Shown here: one piece after another, positions 3,186-43,233 of the stretch
Layout of the letters: every line of letters begins with the position of its first letter
How positions within the stretch are numbered: the stretch's first letter is position 1
IMG/VR virus record: IMGVR_UViG_3300027769_000048
Location: 1 to 43,233 of that record
From: a virus
Lineage: Duplodnaviria; Caudoviricetes
DNA: 43,233 nt
Reading direction: 5' to 3' (one strand)
Notes under the pieces: generated by a model
Told to the model about the DNA's origin: nothing
Database searches by the model: none
Seen by the model: the letters and a program-made list of their open reading frames with translations, nothing else
Program-made: the position numbers and the translations under genes

Positions 3186-3188
3186 CCC

Positions 3189-8900: not shown

Positions 8901-9235
8901 ACGTGCAGGGCCAGGACATGGCAGGTGCACTGCGCAGCCTGATGCGTGATCCGAAGTACAACCAGCTGCTCAACGACCCGGCAGGTGGTGTCAGCCCGAG
9001 CTTGGCGGTGCAGCAGGGTAAGAGCCTGGCTGAGCGGAAGCAGTCAGGAGGTGGGAAGCTCTACGCCCCTGTTGACGACATCATCAACTACTACGACCGG
9101 CTGGCGTTGATGAAGCTGCTGAGCAACCAGCAGTTTGATTTCCGTCAGCGGTACCAGGCCGTTCTCAGGCAGAAGCAGGTTGGGTTGCAGCAGTACGCAG
9201 AGAGCATCAACGGCATGGGGGTGGGCCGCCAATAG
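5963..9235 (+). CDS. Internal virion protein, gp16-like
   Basis: About 1090 aa. The ATG at 5963 overlaps the upstream TGA. It is the last large gene before the gp17-like gene and has gp16-like segments (LPFWKVPINGIGW; WKPYSF; RDWLG-like EKDWLGN). Confidence 0.7.
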   Translation: MASCNDLGQEIKELQDQLEALKSTRRGLEAQAALADGQPQAKPKVLKTYTGDEVTLDPGKWVTEAEMDAMQMGDETVRQMVAAGFQGNRTPNGRTGRMINYSQIDPSQENIAALLEVMGLKRAGTDKGVELRRPFTNQAAAKALMGMAQQAGADPRAVAEALQKRVKGIDNLPSAVYAAAKARWDAASQYTDVLEELADAMDGGYLTDGLKHQAGNAAKWAHFYEQLDAQVRRRVGQALKSMQFKQDAEISLIDVSKDVQDLTLDQITGNSLVGDMLKVVAEGNAKALRQMAAAKRADQALGLNQPGFYRDLNLLNSLRRANLLSSFSTWAIRNPLSGALVQGIYMAEDMASGGMRLAAKNGIKAGVADELKAAGYAGRAFVDAFSMSWGNFKEALSTGKTTVARDSLKYVESADELRSSKAIVNAAFDSAWEDITSWKGLANPVSVLNFINGGFWKVFGGGVERLTGSDAGYMAPFRILNATDDFMQTQAFAWKSSHEAFVRAAEEGRAAGQGVGWIERRADELAGQAMFSGNFSDDDLVQYRKARNAEYGIPVGDEIGDDELRAMLYNQMKGVPNTESELGRLSLERAKNSTFTGDVTGMAAPFVNGVQQMRSNPFMGWALPFWKVPINGIGWVLNRDVIVALPKQILMEGQQLVSKGAKFTVEEMSDARARTAVAVAIAGMTHVMWENGFFTDGGSFDVRQRERERRNWKPYSFSLAGTLAEATKFQGSSIDVIDLMGLHADILRAYHDGVMTWKEGEVNMVPILMAYANLIKNKAALKNITSIMNWAQDPQRYDFGRVLGDQMGGLLPLSGFGGTVSRSFSDAEEMLAKRRMLSANEVAALKKDPNYKLIQPVINALQTAGDAFVKGNAGILGGLLPREKDWLGNSIQRPLGLPVDLTVPFMPVIKPQDQLYQWLEKHGFGDKPRPDGTFEMGGAKVQMSNDEEDFYRETMRTVRGEIPPEGIGQSAGRLMPIWQYVQGQDMAGALRSLMRDPKYNQLLNDPAGGVSPSLAVQQGKSLAERKQSGGGKLYAPVDDIINYYDRLALMKLLSNQQFDFRQRYQAVLRQKQVGLQQYAESINGMGVGRQ

Positions 9236-9244
9236 GGAGGCCGG

Positions 9245-9268
9245 TAGCCTAAGGACTGCACAGGTGCA
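9245..9268 (+). promoter_or_regulatory. -10-like TAGCCT followed by palindromic operator TGCACAGGTGCA
   Basis: CCGGTAGCCT also occurs before 33257. The 12-bp palindrome is at 9257-9268. Confidence 0.55.
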
Positions 9269-9280
9269 AGCCTTTCGGCA

Positions 9281-10252
9281 ATGGCAATCCCCACCCCCTA
9301 CAGCTACCGCCAGTACCAGGGGGATGGGGCTGCCAAGGATTTCAGCGTCCCGTTCCCGTATCTGGATCGCGCTCACGTCCACCTGTTCCTTGACAGCAGG
9401 GAGCTGGTGGATGGGACGGACTACAGCTGGACCAGTGGGACGCAGCTGAAGCTGAACGTGGCACCGCAGGCAGCAGTGGCAGGGACACCGCCAGTTCCTG
9501 CCCAGGTGCTGACGGTGCGGCGGATCACGCCAGAGGACGATCAGATCGTCCAGTGGAAGGACGGCAGCTACATCATTGCGGATGATCTGAACGAGTCAGA
9601 CAAGCAGTGGCTGTACCTGATCCAGGAACACCACGATGCGGTGCTGCTGCTGCTGTATGGGAAGGGGTCGATCCCTGGTGGTGGGAACCCTGCTGCCAGC
9701 CTGTCCTTCTGGAACAACCTGCCCAGGAGCAAGGACCCCAATAAGGGGACAGCAACTGAGATTGCTCAGACCATCACCAAGCTGGACCAGCTGCTGGGTG
9801 ATTGGCCCAAGGATGGCAAGGACAAGTACATCGCCACCACTGATGCGATCAGTGCTCGACTGGATCCCTATGTGCAGGACGGTGTTCCCACTGCCCTGGG
9901 TCTGCCGCAGAAGGAACAGCAAGGCAAGCAGTGGTTTGACACCGATGAGCTGGTCCAGCGGTTCTGGGATGCAGATGCTGGCGCCTGGGTGACGCTGGCC
10001 AACACTGGCCCGCAGGGTCCGCCTGGTCCGAACGTGTTCTTTGGCGTTGCCTTCCCACCTGAACCAACAACCTACGGGCTGTGGTACGACACCAATCGGA
10101 GGGAGATGCGTCTGAGATACGACGACGGAACAGGTGTGCAGTGGGTGCTGGCTGGTGGGGTCGCCCCGCCAACCGGTCAACTTGTTGCTGGTAATGGCGT
10201 TGCTGCCAACTCTGTCCATGAAATCCAAACCATTGATCAAGGAGTGATCTGA
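9281..10252 (+). CDS. Tail fibre adaptor with T7 gp17-type N-terminal domain
   Basis: YQGDG..KDFSVPFPYLDRAHVHL...VRRITP...ADDLN is the T7 tail-fibre anchor signature. It also has a short collagen stretch (GPQGPPGP) and a cyanophage-type LWYD...QWV motif. Confidence 0.85.
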   Translation: MAIPTPYSYRQYQGDGAAKDFSVPFPYLDRAHVHLFLDSRELVDGTDYSWTSGTQLKLNVAPQAAVAGTPPVPAQVLTVRRITPEDDQIVQWKDGSYIIADDLNESDKQWLYLIQEHHDAVLLLLYGKGSIPGGGNPAASLSFWNNLPRSKDPNKGTATEIAQTITKLDQLLGDWPKDGKDKYIATTDAISARLDPYVQDGVPTALGLPQKEQQGKQWFDTDELVQRFWDADAGAWVTLANTGPQGPPGPNVFFGVAFPPEPTTYGLWYDTNRREMRLRYDDGTGVQWVLAGGVAPPTGQLVAGNGVAANSVHEIQTIDQGVI

Positions 10253-11385
10253 TGACTGTTGTTGTTCAGCAGCTGCGTACCACCAGCGCAACTGCTCTCC
10301 CCGCTTCACTTGAGCCCGGACAGATTGCACTGAATCTGGCCAACGGCTGGATCTTGATGGGTGATGGCTCCAACGGTGTCTCTGCCGCTGGTGCCCCACT
10401 GACTGCTGGTACTGCCACCGTCTTCGGCGTGGCTGGCGTGGTGGTTCCTGCCACCCCACCTGCTGGCAAGGGCTATGAGATCTATGAACTGAAGAACCCA
10501 CCGGCCTCGGTGCGGATCTTCTCTGGCACCGGTGCTGCACTTGATGCAGCCAACGGTGGTACGGGCACCATGACGGTGCGGACCACTGCCTACTTGGTGG
10601 CCAGCACCACGCCACCTGCCAATCAGATCAACTCTGCAGCTGACCTGCGCTCGGGTGACACCATCGTGGTCAGCGGTGGCACCGCTGGTTCCCCTGGTGG
10701 TTCCTATGTGTGGGATGGCTCCAGCTGGCTGCTGACTGGTGGTGCGCTGCCTGATGCAACCGCCCGCATTGGCACCGGCGCTTCCGGCACTGGTGGCACC
10801 AAGGGTGTTGTTTACCTGGCCCGCGACACTGATGTGCAGCCCACGGCCCAGGCAGGGGCCACCGCACCTGATGGTCTGGCGGTTGCCACTGCTGGCCAGG
10901 TGAAAGCCCTGGCTGAACTGGTGGCTGGTCTGGCTACGGGCTCCACCCTGCTGGGCACCTACGACGCTGGCGCTGCAGGTGGTGGCTCGATTGCCACCGT
11001 GACCACTGCTGCCTCTGGTGGTGGCCGCACTGGCTTTGCTGCTGCAGCCAAGATCGCTGCTGGCCGCGGCATGAAGGAGGGCGATTACCTCCTGGTGGTC
11101 AAGCCTGGCACCGTCACTGGTGAGACCCCAGCCACCTTGAACGTGGCGATGAACGCCAACGATCACGTCGTCTACGACGGTGCGACTTGGCACCTGGTGT
11201 TCTCTGGTGTGGTGGCAGCAACGGGCTTCTCCGTTCACTCCGCATCTGACGTGAGTGACACCACCGTGGCCAGCGTCACCTCTGCCAACCAGAAGGGTGT
11301 GCTGGTGCGGGATAACGCCATCACCGATGGCACAGCTGCTGCATACAAGCTCGTGAACACACTTGATCTGGGGACTTTCAGCTGA
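10252..11385 (+). CDS. Tail fibre protein
   Basis: 377 aa, Gly/Ala/Thr-rich. N-terminal QLR...LEPGQIALN module, YVWDGSSW/YDGATW repeats and C-terminal LDLGTF. Confidence 0.7.
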   Translation: MTVVVQQLRTTSATALPASLEPGQIALNLANGWILMGDGSNGVSAAGAPLTAGTATVFGVAGVVVPATPPAGKGYEIYELKNPPASVRIFSGTGAALDAANGGTGTMTVRTTAYLVASTTPPANQINSAADLRSGDTIVVSGGTAGSPGGSYVWDGSSWLLTGGALPDATARIGTGASGTGGTKGVVYLARDTDVQPTAQAGATAPDGLAVATAGQVKALAELVAGLATGSTLLGTYDAGAAGGGSIATVTTAASGGGRTGFAAAAKIAAGRGMKEGDYLLVVKPGTVTGETPATLNVAMNANDHVVYDGATWHLVFSGVVAATGFSVHSASDVSDTTVASVTSANQKGVLVRDNAITDGTAAAYKLVNTLDLGTFS

Positions 11386-13238
11386 TGTTGCAACTACTTC
11401 TTCGCCGTTGTGGAATCAAGGGCACCAAGCCCACGGTCTCTAAACCTGCTGCGGCGGGGGAGTTGGCCCAGGGGGAACTGTGGTTGAACAACAACCATGA
11501 AACCCCTGGGCTTTTTGCCAGAGCAGATGATGACTCACTGATTGAGTTCACGCCAGAGAAGCCGTTCCTGCAGGACGGCACTAACGCCAAGCCCAGGACA
11601 GTCCTCAGCAAGCTGAAGGATGCAGTCAGCGTTAAGGACTTTGGCGCCAAGGGCGATGGATCAGTGGATGACACCGCCGCTATCCAGGCAGCGATTGACG
11701 CCCACGATCATGTCGTCATTCCGCCTGGTCGCTACCGCTGCGATGGCGGCATTTTGATCAACAGCACCTACACCCACCGGAAGCTGGTGTCAATGAGCGC
11801 CGGCACCACGCTGGTACGGGTGGCGGCGTCTTCAACATCAACCGATCCAGTGGTTGAACTGCTTGGTCTTTATGGACACTTTGACGGGGGCTTTGGCGAG
11901 ATTCTGTCGGAGAACGATTCTCCTCGCGGTGTTGTTGCGTTGGGCCATCGAGATACCGGCACCCTTCAGACAGGCAATGGCCTGTGCTGGTCATTTGTGA
12001 ATTGCGATGTGCGCTGCAAGGCGTACACGACAGAGCCTATTGAGGCCGCCACTGTTGGCGTCTACATTCCCTCGGCGCAACCGACCAAGGGGACAAGTAG
12101 CGCCAACTACTTCGGCACGGTGTCAAATGTGCGGGTCTTCGATGCGTCAGTGGCGTACTGGCTGACTGACGTCAGCAATTCGCACACCTTTGTTAATTGC
12201 GCGATTGATCACTTCTGGCACTACGGCTGGAGATTGAACGGCGCCTACGCTAACTCAATCTATGGCGGCTTCATCAACGGCTGCAACAAGAATGGTGGCT
12301 ACGCGATCTACCTTGGCAATAAGCTGACTCCAGCGGCAGCTCATGCAGCCAATCACCAGTCAAGCAACAACAACATTTTTGGCGTTGCGATGGAGTTGTA
12401 TAGCACCGGGAACCACGGTGTCTACATTCCTGCTGGGGTTGCCGGCGCTGATAGTGCCCATAACTTTGTCCAGTTCAGCTGGAACAGCACCGGCACTCCG
12501 GTGGAAGACCTGACGGATAGCGCTCTCAACACAATCATTGATGGCGTGACTACTTTCAGGCTGGGCGAAAACCTGAAGATGCCGAATAGCACCATTACCG
12601 GCAAGCATCTTCTGCAAATTGGATCTGCGGCCAACTTGTCTGCCCATACCATTGCAAGAACATGCCCGCCTGGTGCGGCTGTGCTTGTCGTTGAGAACCT
12701 TGGCACGGCTGTTGGAGCCCCATCCGTTTTGGAGCTTCAGTGGAATCAGGCCGTTACTGGCTACAACGGTCCCATCATCAATGCGTATCACGTACCAACA
12801 GCCAAGAGCGTCTTCAGGGTTCTTGATGATGGCAACTGCCAGAACGTCAACAACGTTTATGGCGCCATTTCAGACCGAAAGTTGAAGAACCTGTTGGGCG
12901 CGGCCAGCAGTCAATGGGATGATGTGAAGTTTCTGGCTGATCACCTTCAGCGGTACACTCTTAAGTCGGACCCGCTCAATGTTCCCCAGATTGGCTGGGT
13001 TGCCCAAGAGATCGAAGGGCAGTGCCCAGGTTTGGTGTTTGACACTCCCGACATGAAGCGCACGGAAGGAGTAGACGCGGACGGGAATAAAACCGTTGCT
13101 AATGAGCCGACTGGCACTACGACCAAAGGGGTCCGCTATTCCGTCGCCATGCTCAAGGGCTTCAAGGCTTTGGGCGAGGCGATGGCGCGGATTGAGCAGC
13201 TGGAGCACCAGATCGCTGCCTTGTCTGTTGGCAAATAA
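11385..13238 (+). CDS. Tailspike: pectate-lyase-like beta-helix with C-terminal S74 intramolecular chaperone
   Basis: VSVKDFGAKGDGSVDDTAAIQAAID beta-helix start, and ISDRKLK...IGWVAQE...VRYS...coiled coil as the S74 autocleaving chaperone. Confidence 0.85.
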   Translation: MLQLLLRRCGIKGTKPTVSKPAAAGELAQGELWLNNNHETPGLFARADDDSLIEFTPEKPFLQDGTNAKPRTVLSKLKDAVSVKDFGAKGDGSVDDTAAIQAAIDAHDHVVIPPGRYRCDGGILINSTYTHRKLVSMSAGTTLVRVAASSTSTDPVVELLGLYGHFDGGFGEILSENDSPRGVVALGHRDTGTLQTGNGLCWSFVNCDVRCKAYTTEPIEAATVGVYIPSAQPTKGTSSANYFGTVSNVRVFDASVAYWLTDVSNSHTFVNCAIDHFWHYGWRLNGAYANSIYGGFINGCNKNGGYAIYLGNKLTPAAAHAANHQSSNNNIFGVAMELYSTGNHGVYIPAGVAGADSAHNFVQFSWNSTGTPVEDLTDSALNTIIDGVTTFRLGENLKMPNSTITGKHLLQIGSAANLSAHTIARTCPPGAAVLVVENLGTAVGAPSVLELQWNQAVTGYNGPIINAYHVPTAKSVFRVLDDGNCQNVNNVYGAISDRKLKNLLGAASSQWDDVKFLADHLQRYTLKSDPLNVPQIGWVAQEIEGQCPGLVFDTPDMKRTEGVDADGNKTVANEPTGTTTKGVRYSVAMLKGFKALGEAMARIEQLEHQIAALSVGK

Positions 13239-13265
13239 CACTCCACATCACCACCCACCTGAGCC

Positions 13266-16211
13266 ATGTCCTTCCCCTTTCCCAAGAACCCGACTGATGG
13301 ACAGGTGGTGTCAGCCACTGCTCCTGATGGGTCGATCCTGACGGCCACCTACAAGGCGGTCAAGAATGAATGGGAGCTGACCCGTACTCCAGCTCCTGGC
13401 AGTGCGATCAGCAGCGGTGCCCCACCGTCTCCAGTGGTGGTGACAGCCACGGCTGATGGACAGGTCATTACCTGGGACCAGGTGGCTGGCAGGTGGGTGG
13501 CGAAGGCACCGTCTGCTGCGACCAGTGGCACCACCAAGAGCTTCGTCAAAGGAACGCAGGCTGCCCCTGATCAAGCCAATGGTGTTGGTCCTGCTCAGCT
13601 GCGGCCTGGAGACATCCAGTTCACCGCTGAGAATCTGCACCACGAGATTAAGTTCTGGAATGGTGCGAACTGGCTTGAGAGCCTGAGCGAGGACACGATC
13701 AAGCAGTGGATCAGCGCTGGCTCCCTGTTCCGTGGTGTGGTGAAGGAGTCCACGCTGGCTGCCTTGCCTGCTGTGGCATTGGCCAACAGGGGCTTCTACT
13801 ACAGCTGGACTGGGGCGCCGGGTCATGTGGTCACAGCAGCTGACCCAGGCATTGGCACCGACCTGGCTGGGGAAGTGCTGCAGGTGGGTGACTGGATTCA
13901 ATCAGATGGAACCAAATGGGTGCATGTCCCTGGTGACCTGCTGAGCAAGCAACGCTGGGATTCTCTGGGCAGCTTCACCTCATGGTCTGACACCAGCTGG
14001 GAGAAGGGGTCAGTCGTCAGCTACCAGAAGGCGTTCTTCCGTGCCAATGCGCTGATCTCTCCCGGTGACCTGCCTCCTGGTGACCCTGGCTCCAAGTGGA
14101 CAGACATCACTCCACTGCCTCACATGAAGCTGGAGGAGCTGGAGGACTGCCACAACCTGGCAGCCGCCAATGACAGGGAAGTTCCTGCCTGGGATGCAGT
14201 CAACAACGAATGGGTGCCCACGCAGCTAGCCCTGAATGATCTGAGTGATGTAAATGCTAACGTCCTCAATCCCACTGATGGTGCTGTCCTCCAATGGGAT
14301 GACATGACCCAGCAATGGGACGCTGCCACCACCTTGGCCCTACGCCTTGAAGACCTTGGAGACACTGGTCAACTTGGTGGAGCCACTGCAGGTCAAGTCC
14401 CGTCCTGGGACGCAGCAGCCAGTGAGTGGAAGCCTCTATCCGTTATCAACCCTATCCCCTACTTCACTGGTAAGTATGGGCCTGGAACTCTCAGTGGAGG
14501 CACGACCTGGGTCCAGTGGCCCAACGCCAAAGAGGGGGACATTTGGGTCAATAAGAACACCACTCCTCCTCACTTTGAGGTGTATGAGAACGGTGCTTGG
14601 AAGGTCTGGAACTTTGCTACTGAAACCAGAGCCCTTGGACTGCTTGGCGACCTTGCCAACGTGGACCTTGGCAGCAAGGCACCGGGCAATGGTGATGCCC
14701 TGATTTGGAACGTCAAAAAAGAGCAGTGGGTTTCTGGTAACACCCCTGCTCACATTGCTCAGTACACGGCAAGCAGTGTCTACAGTGATGGAACAACCGT
14801 CTACTACAAAGGCGGTATCTTCAAAGCCACTAGAGCCATTGCGGCTAACGAGTCTCCCGAGTTCCTGACTGGAGACGTGTTCCTGTTCTATCGGGCACAA
14901 GCCGATGGATCTGGTGACTTCGGTGGACCCTTCCGGGTATTCCGCGTTGAGAAGGTTGCAGATGCCACTCTGCCTCCTGCCTTCACTCCTTCTTCCAACG
15001 GCAGGACCAACTGTGTCTGCTACAAGGATGATCGGAATTGGAGCGTGTGGGAATGGGTGATGGTGGATTTTGTCAACCTCACCTATGGTTGGGTGCGTAA
15101 AGATGGTGCTTATTCCAAGCGGACCTTATGGCGTAGTCACTTCCTCCCAACTAAAAACAAGGGCACCTTTGTTCTTTGGGTTGTAGATGACGCCAAGGGG
15201 ACAACGGTTCCAAAGGCTAGAGAGTATCCGTGGGAGATGCTTCCCATTCGTGGGGATCTAGCCGCTCTACATGACTGTCATGTTGACGACCCCCATGATG
15301 GTGATGCCCTTGTCTTTAACGGCACAACCAACCTGTGGGAAGCTGTTCCGTCTTCAGCGTCTGCTTTATCTGAATGGTCTGGCACTAAGTCGTACAAGTC
15401 TGGCGCAACGGTTCTACGTAACAACAACCTCTGGTTCGCCACGGCTGATGTGGCTCCTGGCATAGAGCCTGGCACTCTGATCAACCCGACCAGTATTGCC
15501 AAGGGTACGCAAAGGAGCTTTGCCACGTTTGGTCCAGTTGTGCCTGGCAGTACCCACCTGGAAACATTTGACGGCACCATCCCTGGTGCATGGAATGTTG
15601 GTGACTACTACGCTTGGTCTTGTGGAGCCCCAATCCCTTACACAGTCCCAGCTGGTCCTTTTGCTGGCACCGTAATAAACAGTGCTACTGGCTTCCTTGT
15701 GGTTGTCGACAAGGATGGCACCAACGGTTGGCTGGGAACCCTTGGCTGGGAGCTGCTTCAGGTTCCGACTATTCCCGCAACAATTGCTGCCAGCGTCGCC
15801 AACCCTTGGAGAAAGGAGCTTATTGACTCCTACAGCAAGGCCGATGTTGACAACAAGGTGAACGCACTAGCTGGTGGCATGAGCCACGGTGGAGCTGTTG
15901 TTGACTTCCTGGCTGCACCACCCGCTTCCCCGGTTGCAGGGGAGGCATACATCGTGTCTCCCAATGCAACGGGTGCATGGGCTGGCAAGGACAATCAGAT
16001 CGCTCAGTGGCTAAGCGGTGCCTGGGTATTCACCCAACCATCTGCTGATGACACTCACCTGGTCGAGAAGCTGTCTCAGATGTGGCACTACAACGGAACC
16101 ATCTGGGTGAAGGTTGCTGACCTGAGCCTGAAGATGGTTGCCTTGACGCAGGCTGCTTATGACGCAATAGCTACGAAGGATCCCTTGACCCTTTACATCA
16201 TCTCAGCATGA
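13266..16211 (+). CDS. Modular tail fibre (LxDLxDV repeats, three CBM5/12-like repeats, DUF2793-like domain)
   Basis: Starts FPKNPTDGQ. Repeated L.DL.DV...DG..L.WD...W units and three W/Y...Y..G..V.Y....F.A modules. PPASP..GEAYIV...ATGAWAGKDNQIA is DUF2793-like, and the protein ends LTQAAYDAI..KDP.TLYII. Confidence 0.8.
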   Translation: MSFPFPKNPTDGQVVSATAPDGSILTATYKAVKNEWELTRTPAPGSAISSGAPPSPVVVTATADGQVITWDQVAGRWVAKAPSAATSGTTKSFVKGTQAAPDQANGVGPAQLRPGDIQFTAENLHHEIKFWNGANWLESLSEDTIKQWISAGSLFRGVVKESTLAALPAVALANRGFYYSWTGAPGHVVTAADPGIGTDLAGEVLQVGDWIQSDGTKWVHVPGDLLSKQRWDSLGSFTSWSDTSWEKGSVVSYQKAFFRANALISPGDLPPGDPGSKWTDITPLPHMKLEELEDCHNLAAANDREVPAWDAVNNEWVPTQLALNDLSDVNANVLNPTDGAVLQWDDMTQQWDAATTLALRLEDLGDTGQLGGATAGQVPSWDAAASEWKPLSVINPIPYFTGKYGPGTLSGGTTWVQWPNAKEGDIWVNKNTTPPHFEVYENGAWKVWNFATETRALGLLGDLANVDLGSKAPGNGDALIWNVKKEQWVSGNTPAHIAQYTASSVYSDGTTVYYKGGIFKATRAIAANESPEFLTGDVFLFYRAQADGSGDFGGPFRVFRVEKVADATLPPAFTPSSNGRTNCVCYKDDRNWSVWEWVMVDFVNLTYGWVRKDGAYSKRTLWRSHFLPTKNKGTFVLWVVDDAKGTTVPKAREYPWEMLPIRGDLAALHDCHVDDPHDGDALVFNGTTNLWEAVPSSASALSEWSGTKSYKSGATVLRNNNLWFATADVAPGIEPGTLINPTSIAKGTQRSFATFGPVVPGSTHLETFDGTIPGAWNVGDYYAWSCGAPIPYTVPAGPFAGTVINSATGFLVVVDKDGTNGWLGTLGWELLQVPTIPATIAASVANPWRKELIDSYSKADVDNKVNALAGGMSHGGAVVDFLAAPPASPVAGEAYIVSPNATGAWAGKDNQIAQWLSGAWVFTQPSADDTHLVEKLSQMWHYNGTIWVKVADLSLKMVALTQAAYDAIATKDPLTLYIISA

Positions 16212-16720: not shown

Positions 16721-16844
16721 AACACGCCATCCCATCAGCGGTGGTGACATCGAGACAGCACCTGTTCACTATGGACTCAATACTTTCATAAAAATAAATT
16801 AGTAGGTCTTAGTGCTATGTTTAGAGCAGTCACAAGCACCATTC

Positions 16845-17402
16845 ATGCACGAGACCTGGAAGCCAGTCCCCGGCTACGAGGGGCTGTACGAGGTCAGCGA
16901 CATGGGGCGGGTCAAATCACTGGGCCGTCCCTACAAGATGCGGAACTCCCGCCAGCCGGAGGTGGTCATGGACTGTAAAAAGCCAGAGCGGATCCTGAAG
17001 ACCACCAAGCCGAAGTATCCGCAGGTCGCCTTGTATGCAACAGACGGGACCAAGACCCAGCCACTGGTTCATCACCTGGTGCTGCGGGCTTTCGTTGGTG
17101 AAGCTCCTGCTGGCATGGAGGGAAACCACAAGAACGGCGACTCAGCCGATAACAGGCTGGAAAACCTGGAATGGGTAACTCACCAAGAGAACATCGTTCA
17201 TTCCAGGCATACCCTTGACAAGTGTGTACGAGAAAAGAACGGCAACGCCAAGCTCACCGAGCAACAGGTGATCCAGCTGCGGCAGGCCAGGGTCAGCGGT
17301 CAGTCTGTCTCTGCGCTGGCCCGTGAGTTTGGGGTGAGCGTCACTGCTGCCTGCAATGCGGCTACCGGCAGAACCTGGAAGACGCTGGAGATGGCTGCCT
17401 AA
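16845..17402 (+). CDS. NUMOD4-HNH homing endonuclease
   Basis: ETWKPVPGYEGLYEVSDMGRVKS (NUMOD4), VHHLVLRAF...NHKNGDSADNRLENLEWVTHQEN (HNH) and a C-terminal AKLTEQQV HTH. Likely start is the ATG at 16845. Confidence 0.9.
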   Translation: MHETWKPVPGYEGLYEVSDMGRVKSLGRPYKMRNSRQPEVVMDCKKPERILKTTKPKYPQVALYATDGTKTQPLVHHLVLRAFVGEAPAGMEGNHKNGDSADNRLENLEWVTHQENIVHSRHTLDKCVREKNGNAKLTEQQVIQLRQARVSGQSVSALAREFGVSVTAACNAATGRTWKTLEMAA

Positions 17403-18322: not shown

Positions 18323-18566
18323 TGCCACCCTCCAGCTCGGCGGCGATGGCGAGGAGTTGGCGACGAATGTCGCCATGGACGGTGGCGGTCCATGCTTCCT
18401 CATAAGTGCGACCACCTTCAACGATCATCGGAGGCACCGGCACTACCTGATCAGCAACAGCTCGCAGGGCTGCGACTAGGCCACTGCGCTCGTAGTAGTA
18501 GGGGTTGTCAGCTTCTTTGCAGTAGGCGTCATACACCGCCTGCGCTTGTGGTGATAGTTCAATCAT
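18315..18566 (-). CDS. Hypothetical protein, paralog 2
   Basis: Starts MIELSPQAQAV at 18566 and shares motifs with 17862-18110. Confidence 0.75.
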   Translation of the reverse strand: MIELSPQAQAVYDAYCKEADNPYYYERSGLVAALRAVADQVVPVPPMIVEGGRTYEEAWTATVHGDIRRQLLAIAAELEGGND

Positions 18567-19273
18567 TGCTCCACCCACAGGCAATAGCCATCACCACCAG
18601 CGACCTCCCACCTGGGCAGCCAGTTCTTCCAGCTGTAGTGGACGTGATCACCACCGCTGCCCTGCTGGGCCCAGGTGCCGTTGACCACGTTGAGTTCACC
18701 GTAAGGATCCAGGGCGATCACACCGGTGTCGTCGTGGCCCACGATCAGCATCCAGTGGCCACCACCTGAGGGGCTGCTGGCTTGGCCGTGGTGGAGGATC
18801 CCAGTGCCAACGGGGATGCCACGGTCCAGCAGCTCGATCAGCTCAGCCTTGGTGCCATTGGTGGCGTAGGTGGCCTTCAGACCCAGCTCATGCAGTGCTG
18901 CGATCTGCGCTGCGGCCACCGTGCTGTCGCCGTGCTTCTGGCGAATGTGGTTGTACTGGTTCTCGCCAGTCACCTTGCCCTTCCAGGCGGCGATCATGGC
19001 GCAGGTAGCTGAGAAGCAGTCACGCCAGCCCTGGCCATCGTCCATCTGCAGCTGGTTGAAGTACGGCACAGCGATGGTCGTCTGCTGAGGCCGCGGCTGC
19101 TCCTTATGGAAGTTGGCCAACCAGCTGGCGGATTCGGTGAGCAGTCCAGGGTCTGCCTGGCAGATGGCCTGGCGTAGCTCCTCGATGCCAGCGAGCTGTT
19201 GGGGTTCACCCTTGAAGGCAGCGAACACCTGCTGCCAGCGTTCGGGCGTGAACTGGAGGTCGTTGATGGTCAT
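18563..19273 (-). CDS. C39-like cysteine peptidase, endolysin candidate
   Basis: VPYFNQ...DCFSATCAM (catalytic Cys)...GHWMLIVG (His)...ALDPYG (Asp), a papain-like C39 triad. Confidence 0.8.
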   Translation of the reverse strand: MTINDLQFTPERWQQVFAAFKGEPQQLAGIEELRQAICQADPGLLTESASWLANFHKEQPRPQQTTIAVPYFNQLQMDDGQGWRDCFSATCAMIAAWKGKVTGENQYNHIRQKHGDSTVAAAQIAALHELGLKATYATNGTKAELIELLDRGIPVGTGILHHGQASSPSGGGHWMLIVGHDDTGVIALDPYGELNVVNGTWAQQGSGGDHVHYSWKNWLPRWEVAGGDGYCLWVEQ

Positions 19274-26942: not shown

Positions 26943-29300
26943 TTGCACAGGTGGGGTGGAATTGGTGCTGAAAGCATCCAACTCTGCGCCTTGAACACCG
27001 AAAACGCCGCGTCCACACCGGTGGAAGAACTGCAGCGGCATAGGGAACGGCGCGAGATCAGGCGTGCCCAGGAGGCCGCGGCCAACCAGCACAAGACCCT
27101 GATGGCTCGTGGGTTGACCGGCAGGACCAAGCCCGGTGTTCGGCTGATGAAGGACTACGCCGAGCTGCTGTCGGTGAGCCTTGATGCGTTGCTCAGTGAG
27201 CTGGTGGTGGACCCGGAGAAGCCGGGGCTGTATTTCGCTCACTGGCCGCTGCTGCTGCACTTCTGTGACCGGGGCCCCAGGTCCATTTCATTGATTGCGC
27301 TGGGTGTGGTGGTGGACAAGATCACCACCAGGCCGAAGCGATTGGCGTTGGCGCGGTTGATTGGTCGTGCGCTGCAGCAGGAGCTCGAGGCCACACGCAT
27401 CACCAAGGATCACGGCGACGCACTATTCCGTCACCTGCGGAAGGAGTTCGGCCGCCGTGCGGTGTCGTTCAAGGTGATGCGTCAGCTGCGGATGGAGCCA
27501 TCGGGGTGGACGACAGCAGAGCGTGCCGGTGTGGGCAACCTGCTGCTGGAGGTGATTGCAACGCAGACGGGACTGATCAGCTTTGCGACCAACCGTGATC
27601 AGACCGTGCAGCCGTCTGAGACGGTGCTGGAGTTGATCAAGGCAGAGCTGCCATGGCCGCTGCCGATACGTGATCTGCCGTCCTTAATTCCACCGGAGCC
27701 GTGGAGTGGTTTGCAGCGTGGCAGCAAGGCGCTGATCACCAGCCGTCAACCGATGGCGATGGATCACCTGACGCCAGAGGGTGTGAAGACTGCTCTGAGC
27801 GTGGTGAACACGGTTGAGCAGCAGGAGCTGCGCGTGGATCCATGGATGGTGCGTCTGCAGCGCGAGGCATGGGACAGCAACATGCAGGGCCTGTTCCCGG
27901 TGCGCCGTGACCCTGAGAAGTGGGGGTCGCTGCCGGAGGAGGCAGCACTGCGCTGCCGGATTGAAGAAGCCATCCGCCAGGGGGAGGAGGTCGCTGGCCG
28001 GCCGATCTGGTTGCGGCATGACTTCGATTTCCGCGGACGGCTGTATGCCGGCAGCAGGGTGCTGGGGCACCAGGGCCCGGATCACCAGAAGGCGCTGCTG
28101 TCGTTTGCCCATGGCGAGCGGATGAATGACGATGCGTTTGAACAGCTGCTGGCGGCCGCGGCAGGGCACTACGGGCTGGGCCACAGCAGCTGGGCTGAGC
28201 GGGTGCAGTGGGGTCGTGCCCACCTGGATCAGATCGAAGCGATCGTCAGTGCGCCGCTGGATCGCTCTGACCTGTGGCGAGCAGCGTCTGACCCGTGGCA
28301 GTACCTGCAGTGCTGCAAGGCCATTGCTGACTTCCTGGCGGATGACAGCACGCCGTGTGGGTGCCCGGTGCGGTTTGACCAGACCTGCAGCGGGATGGGA
28401 ATTATCGCGGCGCTGACCCGTGACCAGGCCCTGGCGCGTCACACGAACATGATCGGCAGCACCCGCCGCGACCTGTACGCCCACATGGCGGAGGCGCTGA
28501 CCAACCAGCTGCGGATGGACCTGGATTCATTCGACTTCCATGCCCAGCGGCAGGCTGAGTTCTGGCTGAAGAAACGGATCGACCGATCGCTCACCAAGGT
28601 GCCCACCCTGACGGTGGTGTATGGGGCGAAGTACTTCTCCTTGGTGGACTACCTGCAGAGCTGGCTGCAGGAGGAGAGCCCGGATGTGCCGGTGTCGCAG
28701 TGGCAGTGGGAGTACACCCGACCGGCCAGCTACATGGCCAAGAAGCTGGGTGAGGTGATCAAGGCTGAGCTGATCAGCTGCGTGGCGCTGGAGACCTGGC
28801 TGCGCAAGGTCAGCATGATCTGCATCAAGAAGCAGCAGACGGTGCGGTGGACCAGCCCGATGGGGTTCCCGCTGGCCTTTGGGAACCGGCTCGAGGAGCA
28901 GGAGAAGACGAGCACCGCCATCCACGGTGCACGCCGCTGGAAGCGCCATGACACCGATGTGGCACCGGGTGAGCTCAGCGCGAGGAACACCAACCGCGGG
29001 ATCACGGCCAACACCATCCATGTGTTCGATGCGGCGCTGGTTCACGCAGTGGTTGTCGCATGTGGGAAGGTCCGAACGCCGGTGCTGACCAACCACGACT
29101 GCTTTGCCACGGTGCCGTCCAGGGCGACATGGCTCCACCAGACGTTGCTGAGTGAACTGCGATCGCTGTACCTGGGCAACTGGCTGCCGGAGATGCGGCA
29201 AGAAGTCAGTCGTAATGCCCGTGTTCAACTGCCGCACCCACCGCTGGTTGGTGATCTGTGCGAGGGGCAGATCGGGCAAAACCCTTACGTGTTCTGCTGA
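26943..29300 (+). CDS. T7-type single-subunit RNA polymerase (divergent)
   Basis: DFRGRLY, motif A DQTCSG, motif B RSLTK...T..YG, N.IH..D and motif C NHDCF. The true start may be the TTG at 26991 or the GTG at 27021. Confidence 0.92.
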   Translation: MHRWGGIGAESIQLCALNTENAASTPVEELQRHRERREIRRAQEAAANQHKTLMARGLTGRTKPGVRLMKDYAELLSVSLDALLSELVVDPEKPGLYFAHWPLLLHFCDRGPRSISLIALGVVVDKITTRPKRLALARLIGRALQQELEATRITKDHGDALFRHLRKEFGRRAVSFKVMRQLRMEPSGWTTAERAGVGNLLLEVIATQTGLISFATNRDQTVQPSETVLELIKAELPWPLPIRDLPSLIPPEPWSGLQRGSKALITSRQPMAMDHLTPEGVKTALSVVNTVEQQELRVDPWMVRLQREAWDSNMQGLFPVRRDPEKWGSLPEEAALRCRIEEAIRQGEEVAGRPIWLRHDFDFRGRLYAGSRVLGHQGPDHQKALLSFAHGERMNDDAFEQLLAAAAGHYGLGHSSWAERVQWGRAHLDQIEAIVSAPLDRSDLWRAASDPWQYLQCCKAIADFLADDSTPCGCPVRFDQTCSGMGIIAALTRDQALARHTNMIGSTRRDLYAHMAEALTNQLRMDLDSFDFHAQRQAEFWLKKRIDRSLTKVPTLTVVYGAKYFSLVDYLQSWLQEESPDVPVSQWQWEYTRPASYMAKKLGEVIKAELISCVALETWLRKVSMICIKKQQTVRWTSPMGFPLAFGNRLEEQEKTSTAIHGARRWKRHDTDVAPGELSARNTNRGITANTIHVFDAALVHAVVVACGKVRTPVLTNHDCFATVPSRATWLHQTLLSELRSLYLGNWLPEMRQEVSRNARVQLPHPPLVGDLCEGQIGQNPYVFC

Positions 29301-29336
29301 TCTAGCCCCGCGTCTCAAGCGGACTCCTAGGAGCCC

Positions 29337-29388
29337 TTGCCCGCAGCACCTAGGGGCAGGTATGGTCCCGGTGTTCTGCACATGTGCA
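29337..29388 (+). promoter_or_regulatory. Sigma70-like promoter and operators for the ssb/replication operon
   Basis: TTGCCC-18 bp-TATGGT with CACCTAGGGG in the spacer. The perfect palindrome TGCACATGTGCA is at 29377-29388, and CTCCTAGGAG is at 29324. Confidence 0.6.
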
Positions 29389-29392
29389 TCAC

Positions 29393-30070
29393 ATGCCACG
29401 CGAGTTGATCGTCTCCCCGAGGGGGGAGGCGCTCTGGGCCAAGGTCCTTGGTGAAGCCGCTGACGGCTACGAGGAAGGCGACCCTCGTGCCTGGTCGATC
29501 TCTCTGCTGCTGGACCCCAACGACCCGGAGACCCTGGCCTTCATTGAGCGACTGGAAGCTCAGTTCGAGGCCATGCACGGCAAGGGGGTGAAGGTGGCAG
29601 CCAACGGCTGGCCGTTTGCTGATGAGACCACCAAGGACGAGAAGGGTCGGCCGGTGCCCACCGGCAAGGTGAAGTTCAACTTCAAGCGCAAGGAGTTCAC
29701 CGCCAAGGGCAATGCCAAGCCGGCGCCGGTGGTGGTGGACGCCAAGAAGAAGGCATGGCCTCAGGACATGCTGATCGGCAACGGCAGCAAGGTGAAGATC
29801 GCCTTCTCGCCCTGGTCCTGGTCTGGTGCCAGCGGCAAGGGGATGAGCCTCGAGCTCGAATCGCTGCAGGTGCTGGACCTGGTGCCGTTTGACAAGCCGG
29901 CCGCCACCGATGCCTTTGATGAGGAGGAGGGCTTTGAGGTGATCACTCCTGAGAGTGAGACCCCGTTCGCTGCTGAGCCGGAGCCGCAGGGCTTCTCTGC
30001 CCAGCTGCGTGCCCGCGCCGCTCAGGTGATGGCTGAAGCCAACGACCTGACGGGAGAAGTTCCCTTCTGA
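29393..30070 (+). CDS. ssb: ssDNA-binding protein (T7 gp2.5-like)
   Basis: SPRG.A.WA; FKRK; P.VVDA; IGNGSKVK; GMSLELESLQVLDLV; acidic tail ending PF. Confidence 0.9.
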   Translation: MPRELIVSPRGEALWAKVLGEAADGYEEGDPRAWSISLLLDPNDPETLAFIERLEAQFEAMHGKGVKVAANGWPFADETTKDEKGRPVPTGKVKFNFKRKEFTAKGNAKPAPVVVDAKKKAWPQDMLIGNGSKVKIAFSPWSWSGASGKGMSLELESLQVLDLVPFDKPAATDAFDEEEGFEVITPESETPFAAEPEPQGFSAQLRARAAQVMAEANDLTGEVPF

Positions 30071-30435
30071 TGGAAAGCGCGGAGTTTCTGTTCCGTGTTC
30101 CCCTGATGTCCAAGGCGCGGCCGCGCTCATCACCCAGAGGCGGCCGGCCGTACATGCCAGCCACCTACGTGAACTGGAAGGCCAGCCTGCGTGGGCTGAT
30201 GGGTGAGTGGTGGACCATGCCACCACGGCCGCATGTCCCTGTTCTGGTGTTGGTCTTCAGCGGTCCTGCCCGCGGCGATCTGGACAACCTGGCCGGCGCT
30301 GTTCTGGACGCTGGCAACGGGTTGATCTGGACCGATGACCGGGTGTCGGTTGTCAATTCCATGGTCCTGAAGTTCGCCAAGGCGAAGCCGAAGGACTCGT
30401 CCATCTACATGAAAGTCTTTTGGGAGAAGAGCTGA
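30070..30435 (+). CDS. rusA: RusA-family Holliday junction resolvase
   Basis: SKARPR...GDLDNLAGAVLDAGNGLIWTDDR..V, the RusA D.DN....D......DD signature. Confidence 0.88.
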   Translation: MESAEFLFRVPLMSKARPRSSPRGGRPYMPATYVNWKASLRGLMGEWWTMPPRPHVPVLVLVFSGPARGDLDNLAGAVLDAGNGLIWTDDRVSVVNSMVLKFAKAKPKDSSIYMKVFWEKS

Positions 30436-31007
30436 TGCTGTGTCCACATTGCGGTCATCCCGAGTCGCGGATCACCGAGACCCGATCCACTGACAACTAC
30501 GACCGTCGTATCCGGTTGTGCCGTGGTTGTGCCAAGACCTTCCAGACGCTTGAGCGTGTGGCGGTGCACGCCGGCAGAGCGGTTGGCTACATCGAGGTGG
30601 ATTCCTCAGCCGGTCAGCTTGCGGACCCACCTGAGGATCCAGAGCCAGTCGCCGCGGCCAAGCGTGCAGCGGCTGACTACCACCCGGTAGTTGTTGGCCG
30701 TGAGCTCAACGATGTCACTGCCATTGCTCGGCCATTGCTGGTGGAGTGGTGGAACGAGAGCAGGCGCAGTAAGCACCGGCGGCAAGCCACCTGGACCCGT
30801 GCCGCGTGGCTGATGACGGTGAAGCGTGTGGCAGGCCTGCCGGAATGGCAGCAGCTGGCACTGGCCAAGGCTGGTGTTGAGCATGGCTGGCAGACCCTCA
30901 AGCCTGACTACATCAAGGACATGCAGCCACCGGTTGAGGCCGGCCTGGTGCCCAAGAACCAAGCAATGCAGGAGGCAATCTCGCGGTGGAACCTGCAGGG
31001 TGCGTGA
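30435..31007 (+). CDS. NrdR-type Zn-ribbon fused to a replication-initiator-like C-terminal domain
   Basis: MLCPHCGHPESRITETR...RRIRLCRGCAKTFQTLE matches the NrdR N-terminus with no ATP cone. The C-terminal W...RR.K....T.......GVEHGWQTL resembles phage initiator C-termini. Confidence 0.55.
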   Translation: MLCPHCGHPESRITETRSTDNYDRRIRLCRGCAKTFQTLERVAVHAGRAVGYIEVDSSAGQLADPPEDPEPVAAAKRAAADYHPVVVGRELNDVTAIARPLLVEWWNESRRSKHRRQATWTRAAWLMTVKRVAGLPEWQQLALAKAGVEHGWQTLKPDYIKDMQPPVEAGLVPKNQAMQEAISRWNLQGA

Positions 31008-31519
31008 CGATCGAAACGTTCCTGGCCGTGGCCGAGATGATCGCAGCACAGCTGCGCATCAAGGACGCTGACCGGTGGACGCCAACGATCTGTCAGCTGA
31101 AGTACGTGAGCTTCACCGCGGAGTTCCCCGAGGTGAGCGATCCGCAGTTGGTGTGGGCTGCTGAGCAGTGGTTGCAGACCACTGGTGGGAAGGATTTCCT
31201 GAGGTATCCGACCTGGAAGGAGCTGATGGTTCCGCTGTATCGCAGCGAGAACGGGCTGGCGAATCGCAGCTGGGGGTTCCGCGACACCCTGCCAGCGATG
31301 TGTCAGCCCACTGCAGCACAGCTGCAGCTGTTGCCGCAGCGTGCGGTGACGATCACGACCAGCCCTGATCCGCACAACGCCGCGGCCTATCTGCCGTTCA
31401 CCAGCAGCGAGCACCCTGCTCTGCCTCCTGCGCAGGATGAGGGCCCTGGTCTGACACCTGCGAAGTGGGCTGACTACCTCAACTTCTTGGCTGAGGAGGA
31501 GGTGCGATGCAGCCCCTGA
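31004..31519 (+). CDS. Putative helicase loader (lambda P / SPP1 G39P-like)
   Basis: GTGA overlap with the upstream gene. The pattern VSDPQLVWAAEQWL...FLRYPTWKEL resembles loader motifs ending F.PT..E. Confidence 0.4.
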   Translation: MTIETFLAVAEMIAAQLRIKDADRWTPTICQLKYVSFTAEFPEVSDPQLVWAAEQWLQTTGGKDFLRYPTWKELMVPLYRSENGLANRSWGFRDTLPAMCQPTAAQLQLLPQRAVTITTSPDPHNAAAYLPFTSSEHPALPPAQDEGPGLTPAKWADYLNFLAEEEVRCSP

Positions 31520-31716
31520 TCACCAACCTCGAGCTCAGGGACATCCTTGAGCGTGGGCTGGCGAGTGGGTTGTGGTCCATCAATCAGTTCAACAGGACCG
31601 CGAGGGAACCAACGCTGCCCAGCAAGGAGTTCCTGGAAGAGCATCCACAGTTCTTGGATCCTGGATTCCGGGACATGGATGCTTACCGAAGGTCTGGCCA
31701 CCGGGCTTTGCTGTGA
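31507..31716 (+). CDS. Hypothetical protein
   Basis: GGAGG RBS, 69 aa, coupled in the operon. Confidence 0.6.
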   Translation: MQPLITNLELRDILERGLASGLWSINQFNRTAREPTLPSKEFLEEHPQFLDPGFRDMDAYRRSGHRALL

Positions 31717-31886
31717 GCTGGTCAGCGTTTCGCGAGGGACAGCCCGTCAGGTTTTACACGACTGACGGGTGGAAGAAGGGGGTTGTCGCAACCGTGTATC
31801 CGAACAGCTGCAGCATCCTCTGGAGTGCCGGCAGCAATCAGAAGATCACCCGAGTATTCGATGAACGCAATGTCAAGCCTCAGTGA
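31713..31886 (+). CDS. Small SH3/Tudor-like hypothetical protein
   Basis: GTG start. FREGQPVRF....WKKGVV pattern. Confidence 0.5.
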   Translation: MSWSAFREGQPVRFYTTDGWKKGVVATVYPNSCSILWSAGSNQKITRVFDERNVKPQ

Positions 31887-32067
31887 AGACCAACTGCTTG
31901 AGGAGGACCATCAGCTTGATGTCACCGTTGGCACGATCAAGCGCCTAATCCTGTTCGGCATGGAGCGCTACAACGAGTCCGTCAAGTCTGGCTACAAGTA
32001 CGGCGAGGCCTACAACGACGGCTACATCCGTGCGCTGAAGCATGTCTTGGAAGCGGGGCAGCAGTGA
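31870..32067 (+). CDS. Hypothetical protein
   Basis: MSSLSEDQ...YNDGYIRALKHVLE. The start could be 31861. Confidence 0.55.
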   Translation: MSSLSEDQLLEEDHQLDVTVGTIKRLILFGMERYNESVKSGYKYGEAYNDGYIRALKHVLEAGQQ

Positions 32068-32303
32068 TGGGACGCATCCAACCCAGCTATGCCATCCCAC
32101 CCACCATGGATGGCCCGCAGCCGATCCTTGGTGATGGTGTCAGCAGGCCGTTGCCTGGTGAGAGAACCAAGCTGTTCAACCTGCTGGTGACCTTGAAGGG
32201 ATCCAACCCCATGAAGGTCAGCATCCTTGCTGCCACTGCCGCTAAGGCCAAGCGCTACGCCAAGAACCGCTGGCCCGATTCCAACGCGATCATCGTCAAA
32301 TGA
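32064..32303 (+). CDS. Hypothetical protein
   Basis: Coupled by GTGA and ATGA overlaps, with an AKRYAKNRWP motif. Confidence 0.6.
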   Translation: MMGRIQPSYAIPPTMDGPQPILGDGVSRPLPGERTKLFNLLVTLKGSNPMKVSILAATAAKAKRYAKNRWPDSNAIIVK

Positions 32304-32515
32304 CTCTGCTGAAGGACCTTTCCACGCTGTACTGGGCGCTGGGTGAGTACGGCATTGATGACCCCCGCCGGATGAAGGCAGTGGTCTTTGAGCTCAGCAA
32401 GCGCATCCGCAGCTGGGCGCCTGATCCTGGCCAAGCCAAGATCTGCCACCTTGCCATCAACGAGGTGGCTGACCGTCTCATTCGTGATTGTCAGGACGAT
32501 GAAAGCGCTGATTGA
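32300..32515 (+). CDS. Hypothetical protein
   Basis: 71 aa with ATGA overlap. Confidence 0.6.
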   Translation: MTLLKDLSTLYWALGEYGIDDPRRMKAVVFELSKRIRSWAPDPGQAKICHLAINEVADRLIRDCQDDESAD

Positions 32516-33239
32516 TGCTGAGCTGTTCCTGTACCGCTGCGCGGCAGGGGCTGAGTTTGAAGCTGAGTGGGCACCGAACGACTGGACTTACTTTTGCCGG
32601 CACGGGGAAGCGCAGGCCAGCTTCCAAGACCAGGTGGCTGAGTTCATGGACCAGCTGCCCAACTTTGATGCGGTGCTGGTCTTCAGTGAGGGGCCAAGCT
32701 TCCGGCACTCTCTCTGGCCGGCGTACAAGGCGACCAGGAAGAAGTACCGCAAGCCAGCTGGTTACGGCCGGCTGATCGAGTGGGTGAAGACTGTGGCACC
32801 TGGCCGCGGCTGGTCCATCGCAACGCTGCCTGAGGTTGAAGGCGATGACGTGCTGGGGATCCTCTGCGATCCCGGTGATGTGATCGTCAGCCAGGACAAG
32901 GACATGCTCACCCTCCCAGGCCTTCACCTGCGGGAGGAGGGCTTGATTGAAGTGACCCGCCGTGATGCGGACATGGCCTTCTACTCACAGGCTCTCACCG
33001 GTGATGCAGCGGACAACTACCCCGGCTGTCCGAAGTACGGGCCGGTGACAGCACGCAAGCTGTTGGCGGACTGTGACGACGAGTCCGACATGTGGTTTGC
33101 GGTGCGACGGGCCTACGAGAAGGCCGGCTTCGATGAGCGCTATGCGGTCACTCAGGCCCGCTGTGCTCGTATCCTCCGACCAGGGGAGTACGACCACGAG
33201 CGGGGCATACCGCTGCTGTGGAAGCCACCGGTAGCCTGA
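32499..33239 (+). CDS. 5'-3' exonuclease (T7 gp6-like)
   Basis: ALIDAE; FR....YKATR; EGDDVLGI; SQDKDM; LTGDAADNYPGCP..GPVTA; QARCARILR. Confidence 0.92.
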   Translation: MKALIDAELFLYRCAAGAEFEAEWAPNDWTYFCRHGEAQASFQDQVAEFMDQLPNFDAVLVFSEGPSFRHSLWPAYKATRKKYRKPAGYGRLIEWVKTVAPGRGWSIATLPEVEGDDVLGILCDPGDVIVSQDKDMLTLPGLHLREEGLIEVTRRDADMAFYSQALTGDAADNYPGCPKYGPVTARKLLADCDDESDMWFAVRRAYEKAGFDERYAVTQARCARILRPGEYDHERGIPLLWKPPVA

Positions 33240-42322: not shown

Positions 42323-43155
42323 TGGTGCTGCCATTTATCTTCGGTGCTGCCAACGCTGGCCTTGGGATTCTTCAGGGGATTGCTGGCAACCAGGCTGCCA
42401 AGCAGGACTACATGAATCAGGTGGCGTTTCAGAACGCCAACAACCAATTTGCCAGATGGCAGGCGGGCTTTAATGCTCGCGTTAATGATGCGAACAATCA
42501 ATACAAGTATTGGGCCGATACGGTCAACTACAACCAGAACCTTGCGTACACCAACAGCCTGCGTAATGTTGAGCTGCTGAAGTCAATCCGTCAGGCAGAG
42601 ACGGTTGCTCAGGTTCGCTCAGCTGCTGGTGCTGCATTTCTCCAGGACAGTGACGCTATTGGTCAGGCTTACACCGAAGCATCCATGCAGGAAGCTGTTG
42701 CACTGCAGCAGTATCAGTGGCGGGCATTGCAGGGTCAGTCATCGGTGCAAGCGATGGCGATGGAAGGCAACAGCGTTGACCGGTTGGTGAATGACTATGC
42801 CCGTCAGCTGGGTGACTACGAGACGCTGCAGGCAATCAACGAGGGCATCAGGAAGCGGCAGTACGGCAGAGAGCAAGCGGGCCAGCTGGCGCAGTATCTC
42901 AGCCGCTGGCAGTCGCAGCAGTTCTACGACGAGCAGACCTATCTGGATCCTGTTGCACCGTTTGCACCGCTGCCCACGTTGATTCAGCCAGCAGGGCCAT
43001 CAATGACTGGCAGCGGACCAAGCAGTGCTGCTGGTTGGATCAATGTTGGCACTGGCATCCTTGGTGGTATCAGCGCTGGGATCTCAATGAACAACCAGCT
43101 GGGTGGCTTAAGAAGACCCTCGAGCTCAACAGGTCCTGGCACGGGAGGTAACTGA
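42322..43155 (+). CDS. Internal virion protein (gp14-like)
   Basis: Hydrophobic Gly/Ala termini, a Q-rich coil and a GNSVDRL motif; located between gp13 and gp15. Confidence 0.78.
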   Translation: MVLPFIFGAANAGLGILQGIAGNQAAKQDYMNQVAFQNANNQFARWQAGFNARVNDANNQYKYWADTVNYNQNLAYTNSLRNVELLKSIRQAETVAQVRSAAGAAFLQDSDAIGQAYTEASMQEAVALQQYQWRALQGQSSVQAMAMEGNSVDRLVNDYARQLGDYETLQAINEGIRKRQYGREQAGQLAQYLSRWQSQQFYDEQTYLDPVAPFAPLPTLIQPAGPSMTGSGPSSAAGWINVGTGILGGISAGISMNNQLGGLRRPSSSTGPGTGGN

Positions 43156-43233
43156 TGGCTGAGCGTCTTCCATTTGGTGAGATCCGTCCTGGTGCGCGGC
43201 CGATCGGTGCGTTCATCCAGCCCGGTCAGCAGA
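43075..43233. repeat. Terminal overlap (circular assembly), copy 2
   Basis: Matches 1-159 with one mismatch. Confidence 0.95.

Follow-up and report, generated by a model that had tools for sequence, protein, structure and literature searches.

A candidate split initiator and helicase-loader cassette in the gp4 slot of a temperate T7-like phage

Lambda O/P, SPP1 G38P/G39P and Vibrio VdhL are pairs of adjoining genes in which one encodes an initiator domain and the other a loader whose N-terminal domain has the G39P fold. Lambda has no helicase gene of its own and its O and P proteins load E. coli DnaB (bioRxiv 2022.12.30.522210, accessible text), whereas SPP1 loads its own G40P. Among T7-like phages the loss of replication genes is itself known. 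One or more of the T7 replication genes are missing from about half of the marine Autographiviridae (PMC12361551, accessible text), and it is already in print that clade S lacks gp5 and that S-SRP02 lacks the primase-helicase as well. MPP-C cyanopodoviruses are likewise without gp5; in the accessible part of PMC9860041 they keep primase/helicase as a core gene, no initiator-loader cassette is described, and recruitment of host Pol III is proposed, citing SPP1, with the mechanism left open. The subject here is the Caudoviricetes record IMGVR_UViG_3300027769_000048 (the window, the whole stretch of 43,233 nucleotides), in which a short cassette of open reading frames (ORFs), orfA to orfC, lies between the genes for the single-stranded-DNA-binding protein (ssb) and the gp6-like exonuclease. 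An earlier model reading of this DNA, the original prediction, proposed that a lambdoid initiator/loader/RusA module had replaced the whole T7 replisome. It also held that loss of gp5 alone is not new, with which the MPP-C phages (PMC9860041) and the clade S literature agree.

The cassette, together with a winged-helix gene 7 kb away, is predicted to load host DnaB in the manner of lambda O/P, with a probability of roughly 65%. The features of the locus are as follows; ORF coordinates confirm the gene order and overlaps first described between ssb and the exonuclease.

23011 to 23541, plus strand: stand-alone winged-helix protein, candidate N-half of a split O-like initiator (weak phrog_270 match, E 0.007)
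29301 to 29392, no strand: spacer between the RNA polymerase (RNAP) gene and ssb with two CCTAGG palindromes, candidate origin iterons or operator
29393 to 30070, plus strand: T7 gp2.5-like single-stranded-DNA-binding protein, a retained T7 gene (phrog_112, E 4e-25)
30070 to 30435, plus strand: RusA resolvase in the gp3 slot, outside the swapped cassette (PF05866)
30435 to 31007, plus strand: orfA, Zn ribbon, linker and putative O-like C-domain (PF22811, E 2e-8; HHalign)
31004 to 31519, plus strand: orfB, N-domain of G39P fold at residues 1-76, candidate helicase loader
31507 to 31716, plus strand: orfC, by its homologues the separated C-terminal part of the orfB protein (in-frame fusions in distant homologues)
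31713-31886, 31870-32067, 32064-32303 and 32300-32515, plus strand: small ORFs D to G, whose homologues follow gp4 in sister phages
32499 to 33239, plus strand: T7 gp6-like 5'-3' exonuclease (phrog_107, E 7e-50)

Six-frame family searches of the window gave no match to DNA_pol_A, DnaB_C, Toprim_2, AAA_25, Prim-Pol, Phage_endo_I or DNA_ligase_A_M. This bears out the earlier statement that family-A polymerase, TOPRIM, SF4 helicase, ligase and endonuclease I are absent, and includes the hidden Markov model search for DNA_pol_A, DnaB_C and TOPRIM suggested as its check. Among the controls, Toprim_2 and AAA_25 matched three of three gp4-bearing phage records, and P-SSP7 matched for polymerase A and endonuclease I. 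P-SSP7 likewise has no ligase match, so the missing ligase is ordinary rather than special. Pfam and PHROG scans of the 41 ORFs found only ssb, RusA and the gp6 exonuclease as replication enzymes; the canonical T7 pair of gp4 primase-helicase and gp5 polymerase is not present in the window. Matches to gp3, gp4 and gp5 were also lacking in all 80 IMG/VR loci fetched with orfB, and in whole-record searches none of 24 cassette records had gp4 or gp5.

As far as each locus extends, the same gene order is found in these 80 loci. The layout recurs in cultured S-SRP02, in Stopalavirus S38C3 and in 15 records that are at least 90% complete, and is no assembly artefact. S-SRP02 and S38C3 (clade S of PMC12695635) share the order RNAP-ssb-RusA-orfA-orfB-orfC-exonuclease, with orfA 46-49% and orfB 60-75% identical to the window, the winged-helix gene present, and neither gp4 nor gp5. 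In the accessible text of the S-SRP02 paper (PMC8790148) the replacement genes are labelled 'NrdR regulator' or given no function, the exonuclease is labelled 'DNA polymerase I', and primase/helicase is never mentioned in the main text. Both S-SRP02 (22389-23129) and S37C6 (20750-21481) have their gp6 exonuclease misnamed 'DNA polymerase I', and this gene appears to be the 'DNA polymerase' of the tree in the S-SRP02 paper. A beta-clamp label on S-SRP02 p014 (10903-11607), a gene absent from the window, has a Pfam E of 0.007, below the cut-off, and was not used; a DNA polymerase III beta subunit label, also absent from the window, occurs in cassette loci L015, L042, L047 and L069. A search of the literature outside most subscription journals and the supplements of PMC12695635, PMC12361551 and PMC8790148 turned up no paper that gives the replacement genes an initiator or loader role; the replacement architecture in the gp4 slot is likely unreported.

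The extent of the exchange is evident from sister phages that retain gp4. Nohivirus S31C1, Oinezvirus S37C6 and 58 loci found with S37C6 gp4 share int, MarR, RNAP, ssb, RusA, a Zn ORF, small ORFs and the exonuclease, and have no gp5. In S31C1 and S37C6 RusA is followed by a small NrdR-type Zn ORF and then by gp4. Unlike the window, the gp4-retaining part of clade S keeps T7 gp4 with the Zn ORF unfused and is without the orfA C-domain, orfB, orfC, the winged-helix gene and the CCTAGG array. The loci compared were the 80 fetched with orfB, the best 80 of 128 fetched with the exonuclease, and the 58 fetched with S37C6 gp4. Those spanning the slot number 166 (redundant): 89 hold the cassette, 40 gp4 only and 37 gp3, gp4 and gp5, and none mixes cassette with gp4, so the survey of relatives called for earlier does find the same swap. 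Cassette and gp4-only types have the same flanking genes, RusA and Zn ribbon to the left and ORF D onwards to the right, with RusA in 89/89 and 40/40 spanning loci respectively and four of the five small ORFs shared with the gp4-bearing sister group. The stand-alone Zn ORF corresponds by homology to the first 58 or so residues of orfA; 98 of 100 cassette loci carry the Zn ribbon and the C-domain as one fused gene. Whole-record searches found orfB in none of 12 gp4-only records, and orfC, which follows orfB in cassette loci, matched in none of the 58 gp4 loci.

Because the flanks are the same and the Zn ORF is resident and unfused in the gp4 type, the swapped piece is the orfA C-domain, orfB and orfC, about 1.1 kb (about 30610-31716), replacing gp4 at sharp borders. 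RusA, the Zn ribbon and ORFs D to G are resident genes outside the swap. The module first drawn, from RusA to five small ORFs, was thus too wide, and RusA as the mark of an incoming lambdoid module was rejected, being common to all gp4-only sister loci that span the slot; what survives of the proposed replacement of the T7 replisome is that the enzymes are absent and that the cassette fills exactly the gp4 slot. In the RNAP tree 44 cassette and 16 gp4-only rows are separated by a single change (supports 81 and 99). In the exonuclease tree, with 21 outgroup rows, gp4-bearing S31C1 branches first, and in the same analysis the gp4 genes of the sisters form one clade beside P-SSP7 gp4. Both the RNAP and exonuclease trees are quick trees with long branches, and gp4 as ancestral to the cassette is favoured by them, not proven.

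The orfA model displays a Zn ribbon (residues 1 to about 58), a disordered variable linker and a helical domain (about residues 83-187). A PDB sequence search with orfA returned NrdR only, and the likeness to NrdR is confined to the Zn ribbon, with no ATP cone after it. When longer proteins were sought with the orfA C-domain, the best 120 of 151 matches had the length of orfA and, with few exceptions, the Zn ribbon. Among PHROGs the helical domain best matches phrog_678, 'replication initiation O-like', with hits from 5 of 31 members and a lowest E of 0.005. HHalign against an 18-row alignment of phrog_678 C-domains, drawn from 30 phrog_678 loci and seeded from a top match of the orfA profile itself, gave P 85, E 6e-6 and score 34.9 over 65 columns, with shuffles at 13.6 or below. 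The C-terminal helical domain of O-like initiators (phrog_678) is accordingly found in orfA; their N-terminal winged helix is lacking from the same polypeptide, where the Zn ribbon stands instead.

The gene at 23011-23541 is a candidate for the missing half and is present exactly where orfA has no winged helix. It was found in 16/16 cassette records and in 0/12 gp4-only records, 7 of these 12 complete; 3 of the 16 positive records sat in the 7-row search profile, and a diverged sister copy could escape it. Compared with a 6-row cluster of O-like N-domains, the family gave HHalign P 93, E 3e-7 and score 44.6, against shuffles of at most 12.4 and a score of 20.8 (P 6) for the resident MarR family. 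Its S-SRP02 homologue has weak HTH_36 and RepL matches. On these profile comparisons the 23011 protein and the orfA C-domain resemble the N- and C-halves of a split O-like initiator about 7 kb apart. The Zn-ribbon/initiator-like fusion originally proposed at 30435 is supported as to its Zn ribbon and O-like C-domain; the winged helix belongs to a separate gene.

In orfB the N-terminal three-helix G39P fold of PF11417-type loaders is present, and orfB is a candidate G39P-fold helicase loader, supported by remote homology. Since 8 of 22 distant homologues have orfB and orfC joined in one frame, orfC reads as the separated C-terminal part of the orfB protein; an apparent fusion in locus L071 has its junction out of frame, likely a sequence error. 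Searched against 1.84 billion representatives, the orfB profile gave 44 matches at E<=0.001, and the 22 examined all belong to the same family. Nothing significant came from Pfam and PHROG on orfB and orfC members, and a PDB sequence search with orfB gave no match. A complex prediction of orfB, orfC and DnaB from a Cyanobium bin scored 0.70-0.72, and 0.56 in a control with orfB replaced, which is evidence neither way. Several picocyanobacterial genomes have two DnaB-like genes, the second being shorter and 61-64% identical in five cases.

The window contains 14 copies of CCTAGG where 5.35 would be expected, most of them intergenic. In the RNAP-ssb spacer the copies lie at 29326-29331 and 29349-29354, 23 bp apart. 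Of 63 non-redundant cassette loci, 56 have one to three copies in this spacer of about 100 bp, compared with none of 28 gp4 loci, and 43 of the 48 intervals in cassette loci are 11, 22 or 23 bp. Such phased palindromes after the RNAP gene fit candidate origin iterons, at the position of the primary origin of T7 just after gene 1. Int, marR, the 23727 ORF and the 33852 ORF have further copies upstream of them (window 20374-23685, 33836 and 39531), and in 5 of 6 relatives copies are found a short way upstream of the winged-helix gene; before marR in S-SRP02 the palindrome extends to a perfect 14 bp. The MarR-like regulator (21064-21381) is a candidate rival binder of these sites, and plasmid initiators use one site as both iteron and operator. 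Neither a sigma-70 consensus promoter nor a terminator was found at 29200-29500. Iterons and an AT-rich tract are not evident in orfA, the phased CCTAGG lying 1.1 kb upstream, and a synonymous-site scan of the cassette for an origin gave no more than a mild peak at orfA codons 101-119, which another in ssb equals or exceeds.

The window thus resembles lambda, SPP1 and VdhL in the adjoining initiator-domain and loader-fold genes, and lambda in having no helicase gene. It differs from all three in that the initiator halves appear to be in two genes 7 kb apart, an NrdR-type Zn ribbon is joined to the C-half, the loader is divided between orfB and orfC, and no origin is evident inside the initiator gene. 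The likeness to lambda O/P is one of domain and gene order, with no demonstrated sequence match to lambda O or P. With the enzymes absent and the gp4 slot exactly occupied, the orfA C-domain and the 23011 protein would be O-like halves and orfB, by remote homology, the loader. The winged helix, perhaps with the Zn ribbon, would bind the phased CCTAGG after the RNAP gene, and orfA would bridge to orfB/orfC, which would load host DnaB as lambda O/P do. Host DnaG primase and Pol III could then copy the genome, with phage ssb, gp6 and RusA serving fork support, primer removal and branch resolution. Historically, gp5 loss and the gp3-to-RusA exchange may have come first, followed by replacement of gp4 and fusion of the incoming initiator C-domain to the resident Zn-ribbon gene. 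This scheme in full, with an initiator split over two genes, a C-half grafted to a Zn ribbon, a loader split between orfB and orfC and CCTAGG iterons, is tentative, and the odds lie somewhat against its holding in every part.

Several points weigh against loading of host DnaB from a CCTAGG origin. None of 114 orfB members matches the PF11417 sequence profile at E<=1, and HHalign of orfB against shallow G39P alignments stayed at shuffle level, also without 3 junk ORFs. PF11417 matches in samples of 301 and 401 genomes numbered 2 and 1, too few for a deep profile, and one in locus L238 was rejected as false, a CRISPR-like short-repeat array translating as repeating peptides. Foldseek of the orfB model against the PDB gave nothing at E<=0.001; the loader-like gene first noted at 31004 therefore retains the G39P fold of its N-domain and neither a PF11417 nor a Foldseek match. 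The co-occurrences of cassette, winged-helix gene and CCTAGG count as one event because all map to a single branch. The RNAP-ssb spacer has no AT-rich tract, and the CCTAGG copies before int, marR and two more genes fit an operator at least as well. It is possible, if doubtful, that the orfA C-domain, orfB and orfC only bring DnaB to forks arising from RNAP R-loops or from ssb/gp6/RusA recombination intermediates, the winged helix being a transcriptional regulator and CCTAGG its operator. T7 RNAP primes replication, which suits this account, as do CCTAGG copies upstream of int, marR, the 23727 gene, ssb, the 33852 gene and, in relatives, the winged-helix gene, a spacer without an AT-rich unwinding tract, and the lack within orfA of a clear synonymous-site peak marking an origin, unlike lambda O. 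It fits less well with a winged helix that scores much higher against O-like N-domains than the resident MarR (44.6 vs 20.8) and that is present exactly where orfA has no such domain; the helical-phase spacing fits iterons, though cooperative repressors too.

It is unlikely that orfB/orfC inhibit or modulate the host helicase or its loader, or that the cassette is regulatory, with the host's own loading pathway in use. G39P is both loader and inhibitor, the sequence evidence for orfB membership in that family is weak, and the sole Pfam domain of orfA comes from a transcription repressor; yet an essential helicase gene has been exactly replaced, cassette and gp4 are strictly mutually exclusive, and an O-like C-domain is followed by a loader-fold gene. 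A divergent helicase, primase or polymerase hidden in an unannotated ORF is very improbable. The three proteins of 924-1092 residues at 81-9235 have no significant Pfam or PHROG match, but their place between gp14 and the tail fibre is that of internal virion proteins, gp4-retaining S31C1 and S37C6 have three like-sized ORFs there too, and all seven six-frame family searches were empty. The source database classes the record as 'linear', yet with a completeness score of 100%. That the contig is a mis-circularised fragment stripped of replication genes, one of the outcomes that would have undone the original prediction, can hardly be credited given the 159-nt terminal overlap and the same layout in the isolate S-SRP02 and the 15 near-complete or complete relatives.

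Other features of the genome are listed below.

1 to 159, no strand: terminal overlap, a 99% identical direct repeat of 43075-43233
16812 to 17402, strand not stated: NUMOD4-HNH homing endonuclease, after the tail-fibre block
18563 to 19273, minus strand: C39-like peptidase, probably the endolysin (S-SRP02 has one beside terS)
19323 to 20360, minus strand: tyrosine integrase (PF00589, E 3e-20; phrog_1), indicating a temperate lifestyle
21064 to 21381, minus strand: MarR-like winged-helix regulator (Pfam HTH_27/MarR), annotated also in gp4-retaining relatives
21531 to 21953, minus strand: 140-residue ORF adjoining marR, by eye a second winged helix, no Pfam match
26943 to 29300, plus strand: T7-type RNA polymerase, ORF from the first possible start (PF00940, E 1e-48)

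The repeat of bases 1-159, at the gp14/gp15-position junction, is an assembly overlap and the genome is closed, as originally stated. Profile scans found T7-type RNAP, terminase, portal, capsid, tail tube, nozzle, integrase and MarR-like regulator, and the window represents the complete genome of a temperate T7-like phage. The best RNAP matches are S38C3 (49% identity) and S-SRP02 (46%), with which the RNAP tree groups the window, placing the phage by sequence in clade S (S-SRP02-like) of T7-like cyanophages. The segment from terS to the integrase (window 19323-26483) is inverted relative to S-SRP02 7186-14987; S38C3 has the orientation of the window and many IMG/VR relatives that of S-SRP02. 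Genome-bin matches fall in cyanobacterial (4/7) and proteobacterial (3/7) bins and the host of S-SRP02 is Synechococcus; the host of this phage is probably a picocyanobacterium. Cassette phage contigs of 23-42 kb sit in Klebsiella, Sphingomonadaceae and Lysobacterales bins, probably by mis-binning that would mislead host calls.

How polymerase-less cyanopodoviruses copy their DNA is an open question in the accessible text of PMC9860041. The locus provides named candidates in a cultured phage-host pair, S-SRP02 p013 (winged helix), p028/p029 (orfA/orfB) and the unannotated ORF after p029, together with a candidate cis site for host-replisome recruitment. For these phages gp4 serves as a core marker, and the locus also shows that it can be exchanged along sharp boundaries. 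If the proposed reading is true, phage origin-loader systems would gain a new architecture, an initiator in two pieces with its C-half capped by a Zn ribbon, and a temperate branch of T7-like cyanophages would have traded its primase-helicase for a three-piece system that hijacks the host helicase. The sisters that keep gp4 would then preserve an intermediate between the self-contained T7 replisome and full dependence on the host.

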